Positions 540 through 15,317 are shown, counted from the first letter of the stretch. The stretch is DNA of 32,000 nt from Methanothermobacter thermautotrophicus str. Delta H (GCF_000008645.1 NC_000916.1:1530001-1562000), one strand, 5' to 3'. Translations and numbers: made by a program. Notes: a model not told the origin generated them from the sequence alone.

Positions 540-687
540 TTGAAATCCTCCAGCTTGAAAAATAACTGCATACCGGGTATGCTGATCATCAAATTTTTTG
601 AGTGCACTCCAATTTATGTGCCTAATCTTATTTAAAATTTTATAAAGGGGCCAGTTTAATACGAAAATTGTTTATCATATGAGTTTA

Positions 688-1527
688 TCATGGAGGTCTT
701 ACAATAACCGCCGGTGTGTGCTCAACCGAGGATAGCATCTCCACTGTGATATTCCCTGGTCTGCCACTGAATTCCCTGGCCATATCATAGACCGTTGCCC
801 TCTCTGTATTCCTGCGGTGGTATTCCTCTGCAGCTGATGCAACCTCAAGGAGCACCTCCAGTTTCACGGGCCTTGAGGATGCAAGGGGTGTGGGCCAGGT
901 TCTTCCAGAGAACCGCCCTGCAAGGTAACCCAGGAATCCTGTATCTGACCTTATGCCAGGCACTGAAAGGGGGAGGGAGGTGAAGTATCTTCCAAGTATA
1001 CTGTAGGTTGCATCGGTATCGATTATAACCGTGGTAACATCTGCACCGAACCTCCGCAGGATCTCACCGGCAATAAGATTTGCCACCCCAGATGGGTTTT
1101 CAGGTAGAAGTGAAACAAGGGTCCCCGGCACATTACTCAGATCAATACCGGCCTCGGAAGCCGGCTTAAGGGCGTGTTTAAGTCCATAGTATCTCAGAAC
1201 AACCTCCTTATGGGCCCTTGCCTCTGGCGGCAGTCTTCTGAGGTTCCTTATGGTCCTCCTCTTCATGCCGAGGATCGGGCCCAGGAGGTAGCCCCAGATG
1301 TACTTTGACCAGATATCTGCCAGCAGCACTGCAGTTATGGATGGTTCGAAACGGGATTCATCGACCAGGTTTCCCTGGGCGACCGAGACCGGTGTCTCTG
1401 AGATGACAAGAAAATCTCCATCCCGGGCAAGCTCACCGGCCCTCTCGATGATCTCTGAGAAACCTGCACCCGGTTCTATGTAACCCGTCACCACGGGCAC
1501 TGTCCTGTACTCAGGGGACATTTTCAT
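688..1527 (-). CDS. CofE-fold (F420-0:gamma-glutamyl ligase-like) protein, function unknown
   Basis: The ORF track gives 688..1551. I prefer the ATG at 1525-1527 ([12 protein letters not shown]...) because it forms an ATGA stop/start overlap with the upstream Fe-S gene. CofE-like motifs by eye ([19 protein letters not shown]). Confidence 0.6.
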
Positions 1528-2201
1528 CTGGCCTTCACTGGTGGTGCCCATACCTTGAGGTCTATTCCCTCTATAACAGCCCTTCTACCCTCAAGCTGGA
1601 CAACAACTCCTGAGTGGACCTTCTGCATCATGCAGTGGGCTGGCAGGAAACGTACGGTTTCACCGATATTCGGTAGCTCACCCTCGATCACACCCTCAAA
1701 GCCACCAACCATGCAGACTCCGATGTCCCTGTATTCAAAGTCATCCATGCCGAGGCGGTGGCATGGTCCAACGATGTGCACCGTTATGAGGCCATGGTTC
1801 TCATCCAGTATCTCTGCAAAGTGGGTTATTGGACATCCAAGGGGTCTGTATCTGATTATATCCCCCTTCCGCAGTTCAGTGGACGTGAATGGGAAGAGGA
1901 TCTCCCGGCAGGAGCCCTCATCGGGCAGCGGTTTCAGTATGAAGTCGGCCTCGTATCCGTCAAGGACACCGAAGATCTTCTTCTCCTCCTCAAGGAGTTT
2001 CTCCTCCTTAAGGATGTCCTGGAGTCTTTTCAGGTTATCGGCAAAGAGTTCCTGGTACATGAAGTGGCATCTGTCGATCTCAGCCCTTCCCTTGAGCAGA
2101 GCGGCCGCATACTCATCACACCTTGCATAGCCACAGATCCCGCAGTTGTATCCTGGGAGCAGAGCAGTTACCTCTTCTTTAAGGGATTTATCCTGGGACA
2201 T
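1524..2201 (-). CDS. Fe-S protein with an RnfB/corrinoid-FeS-protein-type N-terminal 4Fe-4S domain, function unknown
   Basis: 225-aa ORF. N-terminal [32 protein letters not shown] matches the LPxxNCGxCGxxxC...C putative Fe-S cluster domain. The C-domain is Cys/His-rich (GCPITH, GPCHR, AHCMM). GGAGAGGA RBS lies in the 16-nt gap upstream. Confidence 0.6.
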
Positions 2202-2217
2202 CTGAAAGATCCTCTCC

Positions 2218-2928
2218 TCATTCTCCTTCGTAGGTCTGGAAGCCGTCTATTCTCCTGAGTATTCCCCTGTGATGCTTCTTGTTAACCCTTGTCTCACCGA
2301 CACAGAGTGTGCACACTGCCAGGGGTGCTGAGTGCCGGAGCTCCTCGTTTTCAAGGGAAACCTCCCTGCTTTCGATCATCTCCTCTGCAAGTTCCATGCA
2401 TCCCTGCCCGCTGAGGCCATTGGCCTCTATTATCTTTGCTGAGGGGTTAACCTCCAGTATGCGCTCCCTGAATATCTCCCTCTCTGCCTGGGATATCATG
2501 TCTCCCTTGGTCACCACCGCGATATCGGCGGTTGAGAGGAAAGGACCAACCTTAAGGGGAGTGTTTGGTCCGCTGGTGGCGTCTATGACACATACTCCCA
2601 GACAGTTCTTTGTGTAGGGGGCGCAGCGGTGACATAGCCCTGCTGTTTCGACGATCAGGAAGTCTGACTCGTTCTTCTCAGCCCACTTTATCATGTCGTC
2701 TATGTTGTAGATGGCGTAGTGGTCCGGGCACATGTCCATTGACAGGCCAACCAGTGTTGGCACCCCGACCTTCTCAAATTTCTTATCGTCGTCGGTGTAT
2801 AGGCAGTCTATCTTTACAACGGATGACTTCAATCCCCTTGATTTGAGGCTCCTGAGGGTGTGCATCAGCACCGCTGTTTTTCCAGATCCAGGTGTTCCGG
2901 CAACAATTACCATTCTCATAGGTTTCAC
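2218..2928 (-). CDS. P-loop NTPase, G3E (HypB/UreG/CobW)-like putative metallochaperone
   Basis: 236-aa ORF. Walker A GTPGSGKT, switch/Walker [12 protein letters not shown] with a Cys-His-x-Cys motif, NKxD-like TKGD, and C-terminal CTLC...KKHH. Confidence 0.6.
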
Positions 2929-2969
2929 TTCTCTCTCCTGAATTAGGCCTTATCCTTCAGATCCATATC

Positions 2970-3755
2970 TTACTGGGACTCATTTATTATTTCGCTCAGG
3001 TCTATGTCCTCAACCAGCTCACCCCTCCGGACCTTTTCACGGAGGCTGAGCATTAGTTCATCTATCTTGTTCAGTTCCCGGGATATTCTCTTCTCCTGGG
3101 GGGTTGTGGTGACTATCTTCTGCATACCACCGTGCTTCATGACGATCCTCTTATCGGTCATGAGTGCAAGTACAGGGTCATGGGTTACAACAAGGACGAT
3201 CTTTCCATGCCCTGCCAGCACATTGAGGGCGTCGTGCTTCCTTATACCCGCATTCTCAATTTCGTCTATGAGTACAATGGGGGAGTCACTTATTATCGCC
3301 ACGTCTGCAACCATCAATGCCCGTGACTGACCCCCGCTGAGTATTGTGAGGTCATGCTCCTTTTTGATGGGCTCTCCTGTGAGGGTGTTTGCAAGTTCAA
3401 TGACGCGGTCCACACACTTCTCACTGGCGCCCCTGCACTTGGCATGAAGGCTCAGGAAATCTCCCACAGTCATATCGGCCAGGAAGTTCATGTTCTGTGA
3501 TAGCTGGGCGACCATCTTTTTCCGGGGATTTGTTCGGTCCTCATAGCTTGGCTCTTCATCGTTCACAAGGATCTTCCTCTTTGAGAAGGTGTCCATCTGG
3601 GCCAGCTGTTCAATATCTCCTATAAGTGAACTTTTACCACTGCCTGTGGGACCAACAACTCCAAATATTTCACCCTTCTTTATTTCAACCCGCTCTACGG
3701 GCTCCTTTTCTCCGAACTTATCATAACCGCCGATTACAGTAATTTTCTCTATCAT
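2970..3755 (-). CDS. Soluble ABC-type ATPase (no permease partner in the operon)
   Basis: 261-aa ORF. Walker [10 protein letters not shown], signature LSGGQSRAL, Walker B VLIDEIE, H-loop VTHD. ATG 3753-3755 overlaps the comA stop (TAATG). Confidence 0.8.
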
Positions 3756-4531
3756 TAAAGATTCACCTTTCCGAGAGTGTCTCCCCTCAAGCCTCTGCGT
3801 ATTGTTTCAAGGGCTGTTATCTCTTCAGGGGGTATGTTTCCAAGGTTAACATCTGGTCCAATCTTTAAAATGAAGTAAACCTGCTGACTTTTCTGAGGCG
3901 CCTCCCATATTATCCTGTCCATGGGGAGTCTGTCAGTGAGGTGGTTGAATTCGTCCTCCCTTATGTTTCCCCTCTCATCGTATATACCTATGTTCTGTCC
4001 GCTCTCACGGGCCTCCATGAGAACCATTGATGCGCCTGCCCTGAGGTCAGCCCTCACAAGTCTGACCCTATCATCGGGTTCGAGGAGCCTGTCCCTTTCA
4101 GGATCCTTTTTACCGACCTCTGATAGGACCATGAATCCCTCATCGACAGCCATTTCAATGAGCCGGCATTTTTCTTCAGTTTCAATTTCCACAGTCCCGT
4201 TTGATATCTCAAGTGTTTCAAAGCCAAGGCTACGGGCCTCCTGGAAGTATTCCTCCACTTTATCGTTGAGATGGGCTATCTCGAATAGCGTGCCCCCTGG
4301 ATAGGGTTCCACATCGAATGACCTGTACATATCTACCTTTTCCTTTACAGTGTCGCGTCTGTGGAGGGGGAGTGTTCCCCATCCAAACTTTATGAAGTCA
4401 ACGTAATCTGATGATATCTCCATGAGGTCACGGGCGCTTGCGGGACCCATTCCCTTATCAAGAACCATGGTTATTCCATTTTTTCGAGGTTTCCCACTCC
4501 TTGGGGGGGTGAGAAAATCAAAGGCGTTCAT
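3755..4531 (-). CDS. comA: (2R)-phospho-3-sulfolactate synthase (coenzyme M biosynthesis, first step)
   Basis: 258-aa ORF, recognised as ComA family ([25 protein letters not shown]...FIKFGWGT...). AAGGTGAT RBS upstream of the ATG at 4531. Confidence 0.85.
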
Positions 4532-4682
4532 AACATCACCTTCTGTTTGAGTCAGAAATAACGGGATCCATATTAATTAGGATTCATATGTTTACTACCT
4601 TTATAAAAATTTTTCCTATACCTGCCATAAATATATCCAAATATAATTTGAGATCAGGTATATATAAGTAGGTGGTGTTTTC

Positions 4683-5243
4683 ATGGAGAAGAAGATATGC
4701 TACTTTGAGGAACCAGGTAAGGAAAATACAGAGAGGGTCCTTGAACTTGTAGGGGAGAGGGCTGACCAGCTCGGAATCAGGAATTTTGTTGTGGCATCTG
4801 TTTCAGGTGAGACAGCCCTGAGATTATCTGAAATGGTTGAAGGTAACATTGTATCAGTAACCCATCATGCAGGTTTCAGGGAGAAGGGTCAACTTGAACT
4901 GGAGGACGAGGCAAGGGATGCGCTCCTTGAGAGGGGTGTGAATGTTTATGCGGGTTCACATGCCCTCAGTGGCGTTGGAAGAGGGATATCAAACAGGTTT
5001 GGTGGTGTCACACCCGTGGAGATAATGGCTGAAACCCTGAGGATGGTCTCCCAGGGATTCAAGGTATGTGTTGAGATAGCCATAATGGCTGCAGATGCTG
5101 GCCTCATCCCCGTTGATGAAGAGGTTATAGCCATAGGTGGGACAGCATGGGGTGCTGACACCGCCCTTGTACTCACACCCGCCCATATGAACAGTGTATT
5201 CGACCTCAGGATCCATGAGGTAATTGCCATGCCCAGGCCATAA
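4683..5243 (+). CDS. Pyruvate kinase C-terminal (alpha/beta) domain-like protein, function unknown
   Basis: 186-aa ORF with a strong SD (AGGTGGTG) 5-6 nt upstream. The family assignment is by recollection of archaeal PK_C-like single-domain proteins. Confidence 0.5.
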
Positions 5244-5478: not shown

Positions 5479-6624
5479 TTGAAATTCATTAACGATGCCA
5501 TAAAGGAATCTGAGAAAAGGGAAAAGCCATCTTCCAGCTCAATGAATTCAGAAATTGACAGGGAACTCCGGGAAATAATTGAAAATAGCAGAGCCAAGAT
5601 ATACGTTGTTGGGACCGGCGGGGCGGGCAACAACACCGTAACAAGGCTCAGTGAGATTGGAGTAGAGGGCGCTGAGACCATAGCCGTTAACACAGATGCC
5701 CAGGACCTCTTTTACTCCGTGGCTAACCGGAAGCTTCTCATAGGTAAGAATGTCTGTGGTGGTCTTGGAGCTGGCGGCGTCCCTGAAGTGGGAGAGGAAT
5801 GCGCAGAGGAAAGTGAGGATGATATTCGCAGGGAACTCGAAGGGGCTGACATGGTCTTTGTAACCTGTGGCCTTGGGGGTGGCACGGGAACAGGGTCCGC
5901 ACCTGTGATATCAAAACTTGCCAAAAAGGCGGGTGCCCTCACGATAGCCGTTGCAACCATGCCCTTCAGTGCAGAGGGCCTTAAAAGGAGGGAGAATGCT
6001 GAGAGGGGTCTTGAGAAACTCCAGAGCGCTGCAGATACAGTCATTGTCATACCCAATGACAAGCTACTGGAGGTTGCACCCAACCTGCCCCTCAACAAGG
6101 CCTTCATGGTTGCAGACGAGATCCTTGGAAGGGCGGTTAAGGGTATAACTGAACTCATAACCAAACCCGGACTGGTGAGCCTCGACTTTGCGGATGTGAG
6201 GAGCATAATGAAGGGTTCAGGAATGGCCATGATTGGAATGGGCGAGGCCGAATCCGGTGACAGGGCCCTAGAATCAGTTTATGAGGCCCTTAACAGTCCG
6301 CTGCTGGATCTTGACATATCCAATGCAAGGGGAGCCCTTATAAACATATCTGGTAGTTCAGACCTGACCCTCCAGGAGGCCGAAAGGATCGTGGAGGTTG
6401 TTGCCGAGGAACTTGATCCCGATGCAAACATAATATGGGGTGCCCAGATTCAGGATGAACTGCAGAACGTCATAAGAACGACCATCGTTGTTGCGGGTGT
6501 AAGGTCACCCTACATCTATGGGGCCCATGGCTCTGCAGAGAAGGAGTTCCTGGAGGAAAAACAGCGTGAAAAGGACTCAGTCGATGAGTCCGTCCTGGAA
6601 GAATTTATAGATGGAGTATTCTGA
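5479..6624 (+). CDS. ftsZ: Cell division GTPase FtsZ
   Basis: 381-aa ORF with tubulin signature GGGTGTG and N-terminal [13 protein letters not shown] start ([10 protein letters not shown] resembles methanogen FtsZ N-termini) with a GGGGGT SD upstream. Confidence 0.95.
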
Positions 6625-6657
6625 TATTCTTCCACACACCCCCACTCAAGGAAAACC

Positions 6658-6672
6658 TTTATAAATCTTGAA
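6658..6672 (+). promoter_or_regulatory. Candidate BRE/TATA promoter for secE-spt5-rpl11 (TTTATAAATCTTGAA)
   Basis: TTTATAAA box preceded by a purine-rich GAAAACC, 73 nt upstream of the secE ATG. The same 15-mer recurs at 7946-7960. Confidence 0.45.
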
Positions 6673-6744
6673 GGATAGATTACTCCATCACTCATCCCAA
6701 TCCTAGCCCTTGTTTTTTAACTATATAAATAGCGGGGATAAACC

Positions 6745-6924
6745 ATGAAATACAGGGAGTCTATTTTAAATTTTATAAAACAGTCAAAGAGGGTATTGAG
6801 GGTTTCAAAGAAACCGAGCCGTGAGGAATACCTCAACGTGTCAAAGGTAACCGGTATAGGTATAATAATAATAGGCGTCATTGGATTCATAATAAGTATA
6901 ATTGCCCAGCTCCTCGGGGGCTAG
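6745..6924 (+). CDS. secE: Protein translocase subunit SecE / Sec61-gamma
   Basis: Not in the ORF track (59 aa). Own translation: [59 protein letters not shown]. It has a basic N-terminus plus a single C-terminal TM helix, and sits in the conserved position directly upstream of spt5/nusG-rpl11. Confidence 0.7.
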
Positions 6925-6980
6925 CATCTGGATGGGTTAAGGTCTGTAGAGTGAATTATATATATGAGGTTGTGTTCTTA

Positions 6981-7460
6981 ATGGAAGATAGTAAAAATTC
7001 CATCTATGCCCTTAAGACCTCTGTGGGTCAGGAGAAAAATGTGGCCAGGATGCTTGCAAGAAAGGTTAGGGATAGTGGTATAGAGATAAACGCTATTCTT
7101 GTCCCGGAATCACTGAGGGGATACATCCTGGTGGAGTCCTCATCAAAGATTGACATGAGAAACCCTGCAATAAGGGTACCCCACCTCAGGGGTGTAGTTG
7201 AAAGTAAAACAGAGGGTGAGGCCGAGATCGACTTTGAAGAGGTTAAAAGGTTCCTCAAGCCAGAGCCCATAATATCATCCATTAAGAAGGGAAGCATTGT
7301 TGAACTCATATCCGGACCCTTTAAGGGTGAAAGGGCAAAGGTTATCCGCATAGATGAGTCAAGGGAGGAAGTTGTACTTGAACTCATAGAGGCGGCCGTG
7401 CCCATTCCAGTAACTGTTAAAGGTGATCAGATTAGAATAATACAAAAGGAGGCTGATTAA
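6981..7460 (+). CDS. spt5: Transcription elongation factor Spt5 (archaeal NusG)
   Basis: NGN domain ([15 protein letters not shown]) and KOW motif ([18 protein letters not shown]). I prefer the ATG at 6981 (GAGGT 10 nt upstream) over the track start at 6951. The stop overlaps the rpl11 ATG (TAATG). Confidence 0.9.
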
Positions 7461-7942
7461 TGGCTAAAGAAACCGTTGAAATTCTTATTGATGGTGGAAA
7501 AGCCACTCCAGGACCACCTCTGGGTCCTGCGATTGGTCCGCTTGGAATTAACATGATGCAGGTAGTTGAGGAGATAAACCGCAAGACAGCTGACTTTGAG
7601 GGGATGAAGGTCCCTGTAAAGATCATAGTGGACACTGATACAAGGGACTTTGAGGTTGAAGTGGGTACCCCTCCAACAACTGCCCTCATCATGGATGAAC
7701 TCAAGCTGGAGAAGGGGTCCCAGGATCCAGGGATGGATAAGATAGCAGACATTTCAATGGAACAGGTGCTGAAGATCGCCAGGATGAAATTCGATGCGCT
7801 CCTCTCAAATGACTACAAACGTGCAGTCAAGGAGATAATGGGTACCTGTGTCAGCATGGGTATAACAGTGAACGGTAAGGACCCCCGTGAGGTTCAGAGG
7901 GAGGTTGACCAGGGAGTCTATGATGACCTCCTCACATCATAA
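7460..7942 (+). CDS. rpl11: 50S ribosomal protein L11 (uL11)
   Basis: 160-aa ORF with a typical uL11 N-terminus ([20 protein letters not shown]). Confidence 0.95.
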
Positions 7943-7945
7943 AAA

Positions 7946-7960
7946 TTTATAAATCTTGAA
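7946..7960 (+). promoter_or_regulatory. Candidate BRE/TATA promoter for rpl1-rplP0-rpl12 (TTTATAAATCTTGAA)
   Basis: Identical 15-mer to 6658-6672, preceded by an A-rich BRE-like tract, 60 nt upstream of the rpl1 ATG. Confidence 0.45.
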
Positions 7961-8019
7961 AACCACATAACTAACCCCATCATATGAACTTATTTTTTGA
8001 AGTTCATGGAGGATTCAGA

Positions 8020-8658
8020 ATGCAACAAGAGATAATGGAAGCGGTGAAGAAGGCCAAGGAACTTTCAAGGCCGAGAAACTTCACACAGTCCATGGATGTT
8101 ATTCTTAACATCAAGGACCTTGACGTCAATAAACCAGAGAACAGGTTTGACGAGGAAGTTTCTCTACCCAACGGCCGCGGTAAGGATGTGAAGATTGCCG
8201 TGATCGCCGATGGGGAACTGGCCCTCCAGGCTAAAAATGCAGGGGCCGACCTTGTGATAACCAAGGATGAACTTGAAGAACTTGGCAAAAACCGTAAGGA
8301 AGCAAAGAAACTTGCCAACCAGTATGAATTCTTTGTGGCTCAGGCAGATATGATGCCCCTGGTGGGTCGATTCATGGGGCCCGTTCTCGGACCCAGAAAG
8401 AAGATGCCCAAACCGGTGCCAGCAACAATAAACCCGGAGCCCATCCTGAATAAACTCAGGGACACGGTTAAGGTTAGAATCAAGGACCAGCCAGTGGTTC
8501 ATACAGTGGTTGGTACCGAGGACATGGACGATGAGAAGCTTGCCGAGAACATAGAGGCGGTTCTTCAGACAATCGACCGTAAACTTGAGAAGGGAAGAAA
8601 CCAGTTAAAGTCCATGTACGTTAAGACAACCATGGGCCCGGTAGTGAGGGTGATTTAA
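8020..8658 (+). CDS. rpl1: 50S ribosomal protein L1 (uL1)
   Basis: uL1 sequence ([11 protein letters not shown]...). ATG at 8020 with GGAGGA 6 nt upstream; the track start at 7984 is an upstream in-frame extension. Confidence 0.95.
8044..8084 (+). promoter_or_regulatory. Putative L1 autoregulatory mRNA helix (23S rRNA L1-site mimic) inside the rpl1 5' coding region
   Basis: GUGAAG (8044-8049) pairs with CUUCAC (8079-8084), and GGCC (8052-8055) with GGCC (8069-8072), leaving GAGAAA unpaired. This closely resembles the Methanococcus L1 mRNA operator (..GUGAAGGAGGC...GCCGAGAAACUUCAC..) as I recall it, at the same codons (VKxAKEL..PRNFT). Confidence 0.5.
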
Positions 8659-10116: not shown

Positions 10117-12813
10117 ATGATTACCATGTCCCATCAGCTTGAAAAACTTGGATACAGAAAGTATGAATGCAGGTCCTGTGGAAACACCTTCTGGTCTATG
10201 AAGGAACGTGCAACATGTGGAGACGCCCCCTGTGATGAATACGGGTTCATCGGTAACCCTGCCACAGACAGGAGCTATGACCTCTATGAGATACAGGATA
10301 AATTCATGGAGTTCTTCGCCGAAAGGGGCCATGAACCCATCAGGAGGTACCCGGTACTTGCAAAACGCTGGCGGGACGACGTATTCCTTGTCGGGGCATC
10401 AATATACAACTTTCAACCATGGGTCACATCTGGCCTGGTGAAACCCCCTGCAAACCCCCTCGTGGTTGCGCAGCCATCAATAAGACTCAATGACGTTGAT
10501 AATGTTGGAAGAACAGGAAGACATCTCACATGCTTCACAATGGGGGGTCATCATGCATTCAATTCTGAGGATAACACTGTCTACTGGGAAGAAGAAACCA
10601 TAAAGTACTGTCATGACTTTTTAACACATATAGGTATTGATCCATCTGAGATAACATTCATAGAGTCCTGGTGGCAGGGAGGTGGAAACGAGGGGCCCTG
10701 CTATGAGGTATGCGTCAGGGGCGTTGAACTTGCAACCCTCGTCTTCATACAGTACCGCACCCTCCCTGATGGTGGCAGGGAGGAGATCCCCCTCAAGATA
10801 GTTGACACAGGCTATGGCCTTGAAAGGTTCGCCTGGATATCACAGGGGACACCAACAGCCTACGATGCCTGCCTTGGCCCGGTAATCGAGAAACTGGTCG
10901 AACTGACAGGCGTGAAGATCGATGAGGAGATACTTGCAGAGAACGCCCAAGTGGCCGGAATGATGGACATAGAGACCTACGCTGATTTAAGGGAACTCAG
11001 GAAGAGGGTAGCGGATAAACTTGGCATCTCAGTGGAGGAACTGGAACGTGCAGCCGCCCCAATGGAATCAGTTTACGCCATAGCCGACCATACAAGGTGC
11101 CTCGCATTCATGCTTGCAGACGGGGTCATACCCTCAAACGTGAAGGAGGGATACCTTGCAAGGCTCATAATCAGGAGGACCCTGAGGCTCATGAAGGACC
11201 TTGGTATGAAGGAGTCACTTAAGGATATAATGAACATCCAGGTGGAGTTCCTTGAGGGCCACTACCCTGAGATAAGGAGTCATCATGAGCACATACTGAA
11301 CATCATCGACCTCGAGGAACACCGCTATGCAAGGACAGTGAAGAGGGGCCGCAGGATTGTTGAGAAGACAATAAAATACCTTAAAAGGGATGGAAAAGCA
11401 GAGATGCCCCTGGAAATCCTCATAAAACTATATGACTCCCATGGAATCCCCCCTGAGACCATCGGTGAGATAGCAGAGGAATCCGGTTTTCAGGTTAAAA
11501 TTCCAGACAACTTCTACACCCTCGTAGCAGAGAGGAATGAAACAGAAACCGAGATGCCGGAGGAGGATGTACACCTGGACTACCCGGCAACAGAGCTTCT
11601 ATTCTATGATGAACCCGATGACCTGGAATTCCAGGCAGAGGTCATAGGCATACATGAGAATGGCCTGATACTCGACAGAACACTCTTCTACCCTGAGGGA
11701 GGTGGTCAGCCCTCAGATACGGGATACATTACAGCTGAAGGCTGCAGACTCAGAATAAAACATGCAGAGAAGATAGGTGCCGTTGTTGTTCACAGAACAG
11801 ACGATGAAATCTGCATAGAACCTGGAACAACCATCAGGGGATTTATTGATTCAGATAGAAGGCTTCAGCTCACAAGAAACCATACAGCAACCCACCTCAT
11901 AGTTTCAGCGGCAAGAAAGGTCCTGGGAGACCACATATGGCAGGCAGGGGCCCAGAAGGGAGTTAAAAGTTCACGCCTAGACCTGTCCCACTACAGAAGA
12001 ATAACACTGGAAGAGCTCCAGGAGATAGAGAGACTTGCAAATGAGTATGTCATGATGAACGTACCCCTGAAGGTCAGGTGGATGGACAGGGACCTTGCAG
12101 AGAGGAAGTATGGATTCATACTGTACCAGGGCGGAGTTGTACCCGGCTCCAGGATAAGGGTGGTTGAGATTCCAGGTGTGGATGTCCAGGCCTGTGCAGG
12201 TACCCATGTCCACAGGACAGGGGACATCGGACTCATCAGGATAAACAGAACAGAACGCATACAGGATGGAGTTGAGAGGATAGAGTTCTCTGCCGGATCA
12301 GCAGCCATTGAGATCATGCAGAAGACAGGGGACATCCTGAGGGAGAGCTCAGACATATTCAAGGTCACACCATCACAGCTTCCAGGGACCTGTGAAAGGT
12401 TCTTCACAGAGTGGAAGGCCCTCAGAAATGAGGTCTCACGCCTCAAGGAGAAGGTCGCGTCACTGAAGATCCTTGAGATGAAGGATAGGGCTGAGAGGAT
12501 CAATGACCTAACGGTGATAATCGACACCGTCGATGCAGATATGGATGAGATGAAGAACATGGCCCTTGAACTATCAGCCACAGTCGACGCCGTTGTCCTG
12601 GCGAACCCTGAAGGCAAAATCGTCGGAGCAGCATCTGAAGATGCTGTAAAGGCAGGTTTGAGGATCAACGAGGTCATATCACAGGCTGCAGCCGTGCTTG
12701 GAGGTGGAGGTGGAGGCAGACCTCACCTTGCACAGGGAGCAGGGCCCGCGACCGATAAAGTGGATGAGGCCCTTGAGGAGGCGAGAGCTGCACTCAGTAC
12801 TGTGAGGAACTGA
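10117..12813 (+). CDS. alaS: Alanine--tRNA ligase
   Basis: 898-aa ORF with archaeal AlaRS features, including the editing-domain HxxxH (TRNHTATH) and the C-terminal GGGGGRPHLAQGAG motif. The start may instead be the second ATG at 10126 (see the TATA box at 10098). Confidence 0.95.
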   Translation: MITMSHQLEKLGYRKYECRSCGNTFWSMKERATCGDAPCDEYGFIGNPATDRSYDLYEIQDKFMEFFAERGHEPIRRYPVLAKRWRDDVFLVGASIYNFQPWVTSGLVKPPANPLVVAQPSIRLNDVDNVGRTGRHLTCFTMGGHHAFNSEDNTVYWEEETIKYCHDFLTHIGIDPSEITFIESWWQGGGNEGPCYEVCVRGVELATLVFIQYRTLPDGGREEIPLKIVDTGYGLERFAWISQGTPTAYDACLGPVIEKLVELTGVKIDEEILAENAQVAGMMDIETYADLRELRKRVADKLGISVEELERAAAPMESVYAIADHTRCLAFMLADGVIPSNVKEGYLARLIIRRTLRLMKDLGMKESLKDIMNIQVEFLEGHYPEIRSHHEHILNIIDLEEHRYARTVKRGRRIVEKTIKYLKRDGKAEMPLEILIKLYDSHGIPPETIGEIAEESGFQVKIPDNFYTLVAERNETETEMPEEDVHLDYPATELLFYDEPDDLEFQAEVIGIHENGLILDRTLFYPEGGGQPSDTGYITAEGCRLRIKHAEKIGAVVVHRTDDEICIEPGTTIRGFIDSDRRLQLTRNHTATHLIVSAARKVLGDHIWQAGAQKGVKSSRLDLSHYRRITLEELQEIERLANEYVMMNVPLKVRWMDRDLAERKYGFILYQGGVVPGSRIRVVEIPGVDVQACAGTHVHRTGDIGLIRINRTERIQDGVERIEFSAGSAAIEIMQKTGDILRESSDIFKVTPSQLPGTCERFFTEWKALRNEVSRLKEKVASLKILEMKDRAERINDLTVIIDTVDADMDEMKNMALELSATVDAVVLANPEGKIVGAASEDAVKAGLRINEVISQAAAVLGGGGGGRPHLAQGAGPATDKVDEALEEARAALSTVRN

Positions 12814-14147: not shown

Positions 14148-15317
14148 ATGATTCTTGATTATGATGTTATACTTGCACGCTACGGTGAGGTCGCCATCAA
14201 GGGCCCCTCAGTGAGGAGAAGATTCGAAGGAAAACTTCTCCATAACATAAAGTCGGCCTTCAGCTGCAGAGCAGAGCTCAGACATGGAAGGATATTCATT
14301 TTTCCTGAAGACATGGATGAAGCCCTTGATAGACTCTCAAAGATATTTGGTATCGTGTCATTTTCTCCGGCCGTAACAGCTGAGACGGGTTTTGATAGCA
14401 TAGAGGATTCACTGAGGGAATACATCCATGAGCTGAGATCTGAAGGTCTCCTCACCAGCAGAACACCCTTCGCCATAAGGTGCCGCAGGGTTGGTGAGCA
14501 TGATTTCACGAGCCAGGAGATGGCGGCATTTGCTGGGTCAGTTGTTGTGGGGGAGATCGGTGCTCCGGTTGACCTCGGAAACCCTGACCTGGAGATTCAC
14601 CTCGAGATAAGGGAGGATGAGACCTACATCTACCACAGGGTAATACCAGGACCAGGGGGTCTTCCTGCAGGGACTCAGGGAAAGGTTGTGGCACTCCTAT
14701 CAGGGGGCATTGACTCGCCGGTGGCCACCTACCTGATGATGAAGAGGGGATGTCAGGTAGTGGCGGTCCATATGGACAATGCGCCCTTCACAGGTGAGGA
14801 AGCAGAGGAGAAGGTTGAAAAGATCGCTGCAAAGCTCGCAGAATACTCTGCAGGTGTTGAATTCAAACTGAGGACCTTCAGTTATGGAAGATATCTTGAA
14901 AGCTGCCGTAGAGGGGCTCCCGAGAAGATGACTTGCGTGCTCTGCAAATTCGGGATGTACCATCTTGCAGAGATGGTTGCAGAGGAGGAGGGGGCCCTTG
15001 CAATAGTCGATGGGAGCAGCCTTGGTCAGGTGGCATCCCAGACCCTCCCGAACATCCTTGCCACAAGGATGGGTGTGAATATTCCCATTCTGAGCCCCCT
15101 GATAGGCATGGATAAGGTGGAGATAGAGAACCTTGCAAAGAGGATAGGCACCTACGATATCTCCGTGATACCAGATGGGGGCTGTAGCGCCGTGCCGGCC
15201 CACCCATCAACAGCCTCGCCTCCAGAGGCAGTCATGGAGGCATCTGAGAAGATCAATGTTAAGGAAGAAGTTGCGGAGATCTTCAGGAAGGGCTCAAAGA
15301 CGAGGATATTCAGCTGA
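14148..15317 (+). CDS. thiI: tRNA 4-thiouridine / thiazole sulfurtransferase ThiI (no rhodanese domain)
   Basis: 389-aa ORF with a THUMP-like N-terminal part, PP-loop SGGIDSPVA, and Cys residues in CVLC and GGC as in methanogen ThiI. Confidence 0.9.
   Translation: MILDYDVILARYGEVAIKGPSVRRRFEGKLLHNIKSAFSCRAELRHGRIFIFPEDMDEALDRLSKIFGIVSFSPAVTAETGFDSIEDSLREYIHELRSEGLLTSRTPFAIRCRRVGEHDFTSQEMAAFAGSVVVGEIGAPVDLGNPDLEIHLEIREDETYIYHRVIPGPGGLPAGTQGKVVALLSGGIDSPVATYLMMKRGCQVVAVHMDNAPFTGEEAEEKVEKIAAKLAEYSAGVEFKLRTFSYGRYLESCRRGAPEKMTCVLCKFGMYHLAEMVAEEEGALAIVDGSSLGQVASQTLPNILATRMGVNIPILSPLIGMDKVEIENLAKRIGTYDISVIPDGGCSAVPAHPSTASPPEAVMEASEKINVKEEVAEIFRKGSKTRIFS

Follow-up and report, generated by a model that had tools for sequence, protein, structure and literature searches.

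What do the genes packed behind comA contribute to the biosynthesis of coenzyme M (CoM)? The locus that raises this question lies in a 32,000-nucleotide stretch of the Methanothermobacter thermautotrophicus str. Delta H genome (GCF_000008645.1 NC_000916.1:1530001-1562000; hereafter the window), where positions 688 to 4,531 hold comA and four further minus-strand genes encoding an ABC-type ATPase, a G3E-family GTPase, a COG2000 Fe-S protein and a CofE-like protein. An earlier reading of the DNA alone (the sequence-only reading) had taken the four genes behind comA for a single nucleotide-driven machine of metallocentre or cofactor maturation, and had suggested for it the late steps of coenzyme B (CoB) synthesis. 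Here we find that the conserved unit is a trio, made up of the ABC ATPase, the G3E GTPase and the COG2000 protein, and not four genes. The link of this trio to sulfonate biosynthesis is well-supported, and a role in the provision of sulfite is, from gene context, plausible.

Coenzyme M is indispensable for methanogenesis and for anaerobic methane oxidation, and both archaeal routes to it open with a sulfite-consuming enzyme. ComA joins sulfite to phosphoenolpyruvate (PEP) in the opening step of CoM synthesis and cysteate synthase combines sulfite with phosphoserine; by established enzymology (Graham 2002, 2009), the two enzymes are unrelated and sulfite is their only common substrate. Most methanogens grow on sulfide and are poisoned by sulfite. 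The origin of the sulfite has been open since ComA was identified in 2002, and the literature acknowledges it as unresolved for sulfide-grown methanogens. The siroheme protein Dsr-LP, acting in reverse, has been proposed as the source for CoM synthesis, a proposal that is doubted as some methanogens have no Dsr-LP.

The families of the trio have been noticed near CoM genes before. Fig. 2B of Chadwick et al. (PLoS Genet 2025; PMC12068725) marks an ATPase, a Ni2+-binding GTPase and COG2000 as often co-localized with CoM genes across six methanogen orders, and its legend states that their role is unknown. Our literature searches with the MTH1670-1673 locus tags, COG2000 and CofE paralogues found nothing beyond this figure legend, in keeping with the sequence-only reading, which had called the genes uncharacterized.

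Results

The conserved unit behind comA is a trio of genes

The genes and junctions of the locus are as follows.

3755-4531, minus strand: comA, phosphosulfolactate synthase (MTH1674-like); PF02679 329 bits, TIGR03849 339 bits (cutoff 280)
3753-3757, minus strand: TAATG stop/start overlap from comA to the ABC ATPase gene, read from the sequence
2970-3755, minus strand: orphan ABC-type ATPase with a single nucleotide-binding domain (NBD), MTH1673-like; PF00005 55.6 bits (cutoff 25)
2218-2928, minus strand: G3E-family P-loop GTPase (MTH1672-like); PF02492 51.9 bits (cutoff 20.7); alternative start at 2919
2202-2217, minus strand: 16-nt spacer GGAGAGGATCTTTCAG from the GTPase gene to the Fe-S gene, bearing the Shine-Dalgarno-like GGAGAGGA
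1524-2201, minus strand: COG2000 Fe-S protein (MTH1671-like), 225 aa; PF04060 52.5 bits (cutoff 23), E=3.8e-14, residues 15-46 only
688-1527, minus strand: CofE-like protein (MTH1670-like); PF01996 77.5 bits (cutoff 25), E=1.4e-21; longest open reading frame from 1551

We assign the five genes, comA first, as the equivalents of MTH1674 to MTH1670, because the divergent neighbor matches the MTH1675 structure and comA is MTH1674; the latter assignment, and that of the canonical CofE as MTH1019, are from Kaster et al. The identity of ComA is clear, with the TIGR03849 equivalog match covering residues 14-253 and a 270-bit match to PDB 1QWG. All three junctions described in the sequence-only reading are present, namely the TAATG, the 16-nt spacer and an ATGA at 1524-1527 in which the Fe-S stop codon TGA overlaps the CofE-like ATG. 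A fourth junction that it had left out, between the ABC and GTPase genes, is a gap of 41 nt.

Loci from other organisms were collected in two scans. In the first, GTDB was represented by a single genome for each species and scanned with aligned Fe-S proteins (a closer set, as one of 20 sequences was too diverse); it matched 184 loci, of which the best 80 were used. A metagenome scan seeded with a distant Fe-S subfamily gave another 80 loci, and the overall survey comprises about 166. Among the best 80 genome loci, about 65 are from Methanobacteriaceae, one is from Methanocaldococcus and two are from other metagenome-assembled genomes (MAGs) of Methanobacteriota. The remainder come from Bacillota, one Bacteroidota MAG and Spirochaetota, and some of these lie on complete bacterial chromosomes of 3-4.6 Mb. 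The specificity for users of CoM and CoB on which the sequence-only reading had staked its proposal is thus absent.

When these loci were searched by tblastn with the window proteins, the ABC, GTPase and Fe-S genes were adjacent in every genome locus long enough to judge, and in nearly all such metagenome loci. In contrast to the trio itself, comA, tfe and the genes for the CofE-like and MTH1675-like proteins flank it in Methanobacteriaceae only; Methanopyrus also has the three genes side by side, with no comA or CofE-like gene close to them. The junctions also differ. The gap from comA to the ABC gene is zero or negative in 60/60 Methanobacteriaceae loci (-1 nt in 36 and -4 nt in 22). From the ABC gene to the GTPase gene, it is -4 nt in 48 of 84 loci and exceeds 100 nt in 27, and the gap from the GTPase gene to the Fe-S gene is at most 30 nt in most of 89 loci. 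The Fe-S to CofE-like junction, however, is 20 nt or less in just 1/61 loci and more than 100 nt in 39/61, with the CofE-like gene 6 kb away in one case. Because this last junction is loose and limited to Methanobacteriaceae, we take the unit to be the trio. The four-gene module of the sequence-only reading therefore does not hold, and the ATGA coupling of the Fe-S and CofE-like genes is a peculiarity of this compact genome.

The trio is at times interrupted. Several Methanobacterium loci (L008, L011, L023 and others) have opposite-strand TPR or PAS genes between the ABC and GTPase genes, and L023 has a same-strand metallo-beta-lactamase-like gene there as well; these insertions split the trio into comA-ABC and GTPase-FeS units.

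Within Methanobacteriaceae, the ABC ATPase and the GTPase are 80-88% identical by tblastn, compared with 51-64% for ComA. The Methanothermobacter versions of both share 63-72% identity with the closest bacterial ones, from Bacillota, Bacteroidota and Spirochaetota, and just 51-57% with those of Methanopyrus. This pattern of identities indicates that the two proteins are under strong constraint. Because identity to the bacterial versions exceeds that to Methanopyrus, the module has probably been transferred between Archaea and Bacteria.

Two of the outlying archaeal loci deserve mention. In Methanopyrus kandleri (L001, AE009439), homology to the ABC protein spans 6552-7325, starting at 6552, while the longest open reading frame and our gene call both begin at 6801 (174 aa), and no gene is annotated here in the deposited record; a mis-called start or a frameshift probably accounts for the discrepancy. 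In Methanocaldococcus sp. 16A (L077), an orphan McrD-like gene (7670-8173; PF02505, 198 bits) is convergent with the trio and sits between aIF2B-like and eIF2-alpha genes, with comA not nearby.

The trio is linked to genes of sulfite-using enzymes

We scored the genes within 3 kb of the trio in the 96 loci with at least 3 kb of sequence on either side; relatedness among many of them means that the resulting counts lack independence. ComA was found in 52, cysteate synthase in 29, methanogenesis marker 16 metalloprotein (MMP16; ComF, CoM synthase) as the only such neighbor in 1 and an extended SDR in 3, leaving 11 with none of these. ComA or cysteate synthase is thus a neighbor in 81/96 loci, a definition by gene context under which the window locus also qualifies.

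These linkages fall into four contexts. The first is the comA-coupled arrangement of the Methanobacteriaceae. The second has the order trio-MMP16-cysteate synthase-ComDE and dominates the metagenome scan, where MMP16 was present in 44 of the 80 loci, cysteate synthase in 41 and ComDE in 33, colinear and 3' of the trio; most of the other loci are contigs that end early. Distant Fe-S homologues led to further contigs, of which one carries the trio followed by MMP16 (TIGR03287, 512 bits), cysteate synthase (TIGR03844, 617 bits) and ComDE (TIGR03845/6). Another has cysteate synthase followed by the trio, with MMP16 convergent, and on an ANME-1 contig MMP16 (527 bits) is likewise convergent with the trio. 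The connection to CoM synthesis made in the sequence-only reading is borne out by these operons, of which there are about 40 among the metagenome loci, and by the comA/ABC overlap throughout the Methanobacteriaceae.

The third context is bacterial. Five Bacillota loci (L003, L071, L072, L076 and L078) and one from Spirochaetota (L081) have the trio followed, in this order, by cysteate synthase, an acyltransferase of the BioF/Kbl/SPT family and a KdsR-like (ketosphinganine-reductase-like) SDR. Cysteate synthase was identified by TIGR03844 at 449-515 bits (cutoff 325) in the three loci that were scanned and by homology in L072, L076 and L078. The operon of these six loci resembles one for capnine-type sulfonolipids, although the phyla concerned are not known for such lipids. 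In four of the six loci, a two-domain glyoxalase-like protein is encoded after the SDR.

The fourth context pairs the trio with comA in bacteria. In eight Bacillota loci of the metagenome scan (L125, L129, L138, L140, L142, L155, L157 and L158) comA lies 5' of the trio, joined in L125 and L142 by comB (PF04029, 238 bits), and six of the eight stand beside GerA or spore-permease genes. Bacillus subtilis makes sulfolactate with YitD and YitC, and the loci found here apparently belong to anaerobic spore-formers that make the same compound.

Clustering of the GTPases gives two deep clades, each containing both the ComA and the cysteate synthase linkage, so that the sulfonate linkage was gained or retained on at least four occasions. 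What all of the contexts have in common is a sulfite-adding enzyme, and not the formation of a thiol or an amide bond as a role in CoB synthesis would predict; indeed, no CoB-pathway gene of the AksA/D/E/F type was seen beside the trio in any locus.

A variant arrangement was found in five loci (L087, L126, L128, L151 and L152; four from the metagenome scan), with the order FeS, extended SDR, ABC, GTPase. The extended SDR (PF01370; NQYYHQK or NQNYHQK) is encoded inside a PseG/NeuB nonulosonic-acid glycan cluster. We rejected it as a bona fide UDP-sulfoquinovose synthase, as the match is confined to the N-terminus and reaches 34 bits where the cutoff is 575. Its YH motif is one that we take to be suggestive of SQD1, and the variant may mark a sulfite-dependent modification of a sugar nucleotide in the manner of SQD1. 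Two of these loci adjoin a protein resembling the YeiH-family "sulfate exporter".

The COG2000 protein pairs a CFeSP-like cluster domain with a putative metal site

The N-terminal domain of the COG2000 protein contains the CX2CX4C...C pattern of PF04060 and has the fold of the CFeSP N-domain, to which Foldseek matches it, and it alone, with probability 1.0 (4c1n_G and 2ycl_A); a profile match to the CFeSP [4Fe-4S] domain gives E=7e-8. The RnfB/corrinoid Fe-S type of cluster domain recognized in the sequence-only reading is therefore correct. The protein is not itself RnfB, as it scores 37.9 bits against the equivalog TIGR01944 (cutoff 68.7), matching with residues 3-47 only. The cluster cysteines C20, C23, C28 and C45 are conserved without exception in 50 sequences, the most distant of which are about 30% identical.

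The AlphaFold model (pLDDT 89) places the remainder of the chain in a family-specific beta-barrel C-domain, for which neither sequence nor profile search found a relative in the PDB. In this domain R119, C123, P124, H127, C190 and H196 are invariant in the same 50 sequences and R99 is nearly so, which suggests a Cys2His2 metal site with arginines that would be suited to binding an oxyanion.

The GTPase and the ATPase belong to families of known type but to no known equivalog

The second protein of the trio is a G3E GTPase by its PF02492 domain, Walker A, ExxG switch and NKxD-type motif. Its closest solved relatives are UreG and HypB, and it falls below the equivalog cutoffs of both (55.3 bits against 121.2 for HypB, TIGR00073; 26.3 against 204.2 for UreG, TIGR00101). 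Walker A, CPDH, ETAGLCxRCxP and a C-terminal CTxCxG...H are invariant in all members compared. The NKxD-type motif reads TKGD in the window protein, with T for N, and TKID or TRID in distant members. The motifs pointed out in the sequence-only reading, including the TKGD and the C-terminal CTLC...HH, are thus confirmed, and the invariant CPDH is to be added to them. In the CoM-starvation transcriptome of M. acetivorans, the induced "GTP-binding protein" MA4556 sits in another cluster.

In the ABC protein, Walker A, the Q-loop, LSGGQ, Walker B and the H-loop (THDP) are invariant in 17 distant homologues. It reaches no NCBIfam equivalog, transporters included; its matches are weak ones to generic importer ATPases of 46-62 bits, sulfate and tungstate types among them. 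No gene for a permease or binding protein is present in the window operon and none recurs among the neighbors of the trio in the roughly 166 loci, so that a transport system with a cognate permease or binding protein is not what these genes encode. Motif alignment and neighbor survey agree here with the sequence-only reading, which had noted a complete set of NBD motifs and an operon devoid of a permease.

The rival idea that the ATPase powers a transporter encoded elsewhere, for the uptake of sulfate, sulfite or sulfonate, with the GTPase and Fe-S protein as regulators, could appeal to these importer matches. They are, however, far under the equivalog cutoffs, and the ATPase gene overlaps that of the GTPase in 48/84 loci, which argues for a soluble complex. 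Together with the missing permeases, this makes a transporter very improbable.

The CofE-like gene is a neighbor of comA

The CofE-like protein has a PF01996 domain, and in it the metal-binding residues of CofE (D...DT, Asp...Asp-Thr) align. The CofE fold assigned in the sequence-only reading thus stands at the level of the domain and does not extend to the CofE equivalog, as the score against TIGR01916 is 50.9 bits and the cutoff 180.65. The protein is probably an NTP-dependent ligase, judging from its domain and these residues. In the same frame, translation could also begin at 1551 or 1521; the 279 aa of P0289, a database protein of 98% identity, agree with the start at 1527. Among its best 120 database relatives, every named one is from Methanobacteriaceae/Methanobacteriales. 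The tblastn survey likewise places the gene near the trio in Methanobacteriaceae only, where it adjoins comA with or without the trio. It is probably tied to the comA backbone, or is a case of mere conserved synteny, rather than being a partner of the trio.

Transcription signals and neighboring genes

Three further features of the window bear on the setting of the operon.

4600-4609, minus strand: TATA-box-like element TTTTTATAAA, about 70 nt 5' of the comA ATG, from an octamer scan
4683-5243, plus strand: MTH1675-like gene, divergent from comA; match to PDB 1T57, 399 bits
12813-14108, plus strand: MMP16 (ComF, CoM synthase); TIGR03287 639 bits (cutoff 364), PF01837 plus Fer4

The TATA-like element at 4600-4609 is the probable promoter of the whole minus-strand unit. 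A second set of TATA-like octamers occurs at 629-646, 3' of the CofE-like gene, and the window scan found none with up to one mismatch from 647 to 4599. Because such octamers flank the stretch from comA through the CofE-like gene and none lies inside, all five genes probably belong to one transcript in this genome.

The MTH1675-like protein has a pyruvate-kinase C-domain fold (PDB 1T57) and its function is not known; the divergent pair that its gene forms with comA is kept throughout the Methanobacteriaceae, including on contigs without the trio. MMP16, which was assigned as CoM synthase, the enzyme of the last CoM step, in PMC12068725, is encoded 8.3 kb from comA, which brings the first and last steps of CoM synthesis into one 32-kb window. 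Its ATG overlaps the stop codon of alaS (10117-12813), and the gene for the tRNA sulfurtransferase ThiI (14148-15317) comes after it. Scans of the window for Rfam families and for tRNAs returned none.

The window comA also matches PDB 9cm1, a phosphosulfolactate synthase entry with 60 chains of one sequence. This number of chains points to a ComA assembly of very large size, which could bear on the docking of partners such as the ABC ATPase.

Discussion

A possible sulfite source

As sulfite is the only substrate that ComA and cysteate synthase share, the trio would serve the sulfite-dependent step, and the bacterial contexts without MMP16, MCR or CoB imply that its role concerns sulfonation, not thiol or amide chemistry or methanogenesis as such. 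We therefore propose, from gene context, that the trio acts as an accessory to the step of sulfonate biosynthesis in which sulfite is used to form the C-S bond, probably by providing S(IV), and we rate the chances of this being right or wrong as about equal. A more specific form of the proposal, also drawn from gene context, is that the trio is a siroheme-independent, nucleotide-driven maker of sulfite or enzyme-bound S(IV) from sulfide or persulfide that hands its product to ComA or cysteate synthase. This form is possible but, in our estimation, on the doubtful side.

In such a mechanism, the COG2000 protein would be the working metalloprotein, with its low-potential [4Fe-4S] cluster feeding or draining the Cys2His2 site flanked by arginines. 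The G3E GTPase would load or maintain the metal of this protein, much like HypB and UreG with the enzymes they serve, and a dimer of the ABC ATPase might supply ATP-driven conformational work, either gating electron transfer or handing the product to ComA or cysteate synthase. A hand-off to ComA would fit the universal stop-start overlap of comA and the ABC gene. The product, in anaerobes living on sulfide, would most likely be S(IV) made from reduced sulfur, as sulfite or an enzyme-bound equivalent.

Several observations weigh against a sulfite source. Two Methanobrevibacter-type loci (L170 and L171; GC 25-26%) have the order ftsZ - MTH1675-like - comA - CofE-like - tfe and no trio, and homologues labelled Methanobrevibacter or Methanosphaera are absent from the best 120 protein matches and the best 80 genome matches. 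CoM synthesis by the classical ComA route has been reported for these lineages, and it follows that the trio is not universally required, or that S(IV) is obtained otherwise there. Either gut lineages have lost the trio, or the Methanobacterium/Methanothermobacter lineage has gained it by insertion. Also against it are the 11/96 loci with no sulfonate gene within 3 kb, among them Methanocaldococcus, Methanopyrus and several bacterial ones. On the chemical side, the six-electron oxidation of sulfide is demanding for a protein of 225 aa that has a single cluster and a small metal site, and an ATPase paired with a G3E GTPase is a combination met more typically in metallocentre assembly than in catalysis.

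Alternative explanations

This last point leads to a serious rival, in which the trio assembles or repairs the metallocentre of another pathway enzyme, such as MMP16/ComF, or feeds it electrons, and is no source of sulfite. G3E GTPases are metallochaperones, and the nearest solved relatives of the one in the trio, UreG and HypB, are examples. ABC ATPases also aid Fe-S assembly and enzyme activation, as do SufC and MCR component A2. The MMP16 gene directly follows the trio in 44 metagenome loci, is convergent with it in ANME-1 and is only 8.3 kb away in the window. However, the bacterial loci of the cysteate synthase/capnine-like and comA-comB types have the trio and no MMP16, and we rejected an MMP16-specific maturase as the main explanation. 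Moreover ComA, a Mg-dependent TIM barrel, and cysteate synthase, which depends on PLP, have no metallocentre in need of assembly, and the coupling in Methanobacteriaceae is to comA rather than to MMP16. We consider a maturation or electron-donor role unlikely, and prefer the provision of sulfite.

Adjacency to sulfonate genes could also be inherited synteny with no functional link. The block ftsZ - MTH1675-like - comA - ... - tfe is indeed syntenic in Methanobacteriaceae, housekeeping genes included, and many of the loci counted are closely related. Synteny would nevertheless have to produce four architectures in Archaea and at least two bacterial phyla, with both linkages in each deep GTPase clade and the comA stop/start overlap kept in 60/60 loci, and we regard this as hardly credible. 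Weakest of all, and in our view to be set aside, is the four-gene machine of the sequence-only reading, in which a CofE-fold ligase would perform the late CoB steps (insertion of the thiol into 7-oxoheptanoate and amide ligation to threonine) that the discussion in PMC12068725 lists as unassigned: the retained CofE metal-binding residues could make an NTP-dependent amide ligase and the five genes probably share a transcript here, but the proposal is largely refuted by the phyletic pattern, as the CofE-like gene accompanies the trio in no group beyond Methanobacteriaceae, is tightly joined to it in 1/61 loci and persists without it, and the trio occurs in bacteria with neither MCR nor CoB. What does survive of the earlier idea of an NTP-driven metallocentre machine tied to CoM synthesis is its kind, nucleotidases acting with a metalloprotein, and its connection to CoM, and not its four-gene extent or its CoB role.

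Significance

The trio is a concrete, testable candidate for the missing sulfite-source function. If the proposal is true, the trio would be the source of sulfite for CoM in methanogens and anaerobic methane oxidizers (ANME), and anaerobic bacteria would draw on it to make sulfolactate and sulfonolipids. Efforts at methane mitigation might then also find a target in it. An equivalent argument applies to the bacterial sulfonates, spore sulfolactate and the capnine-type sulfonolipids of anaerobes. Even if the sulfite idea is wrong, what we describe is an uncharacterized ABC-ATPase/G3E-GTPase/Fe-S system with a new putative metal-binding domain.

Comparison with known systems

The genes marked in PMC12068725 belong to the same three families as the trio, and the figure and discussion of that paper offer neither an analysis of them nor a hypothesis. 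Beyond the literature, we narrow the unit to three genes, place it in sulfolactate and capnine-like contexts in bacteria, show that the comA/ABC overlap is conserved and that Methanobrevibacter-type loci lack the trio, and put forward the idea of a sulfite source. The neighboring CofE-like protein shares the PF01996 domain and D...DT residues with the canonical CofE, from which it differs in about 30 additional residues and a divergent N-terminal motif.

With the G3E metallochaperone systems (HypB/HypA, UreG/UreDEF, CobW/Zng1 and Nha3), the trio has the PF02492 domain in common. It also resembles them in the Cys/His motifs near the switch, where CPDH is similar to the CPH of UreG and ExxGLCxRC to the ENVGNLVCP of HypB, and in that the GTPase gene adjoins that of a presumptive metalloprotein client. 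Unlike these systems, its GTPase is under every equivalog cutoff and carries an additional invariant C-terminal CxxC...H, and an ABC ATPase and a COG2000 protein as partners are a combination undescribed for any G3E system.

ATPases gate electron transfer in the activation of MCR, by component A2, and of corrinoid proteins, by RACo. The trio resembles the MCR activation complex and RACo-CFeSP in combining a soluble, permease-less ABC-type ATPase with a low-potential Fe-S protein, the N-domain of which has the fold of the CFeSP [4Fe-4S] domain. It differs in that MCR component A2 has two NBDs and the ABC protein of the trio one, in that no corrinoid or F430 client is encoded nearby, and in its presence in bacteria with no MCR or CFeSP context. 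With the established sulfite producers, that is, reverse siroheme DsrAB/Dsr-LP, sHdr-LbpA and the APS/PAPS reductases, the trio would share its output, cytoplasmic S(IV), if the proposal is true. In contrast to them, it shows no kinship of sequence or fold and has no siroheme domain, and it is far smaller and nucleotide-dependent.

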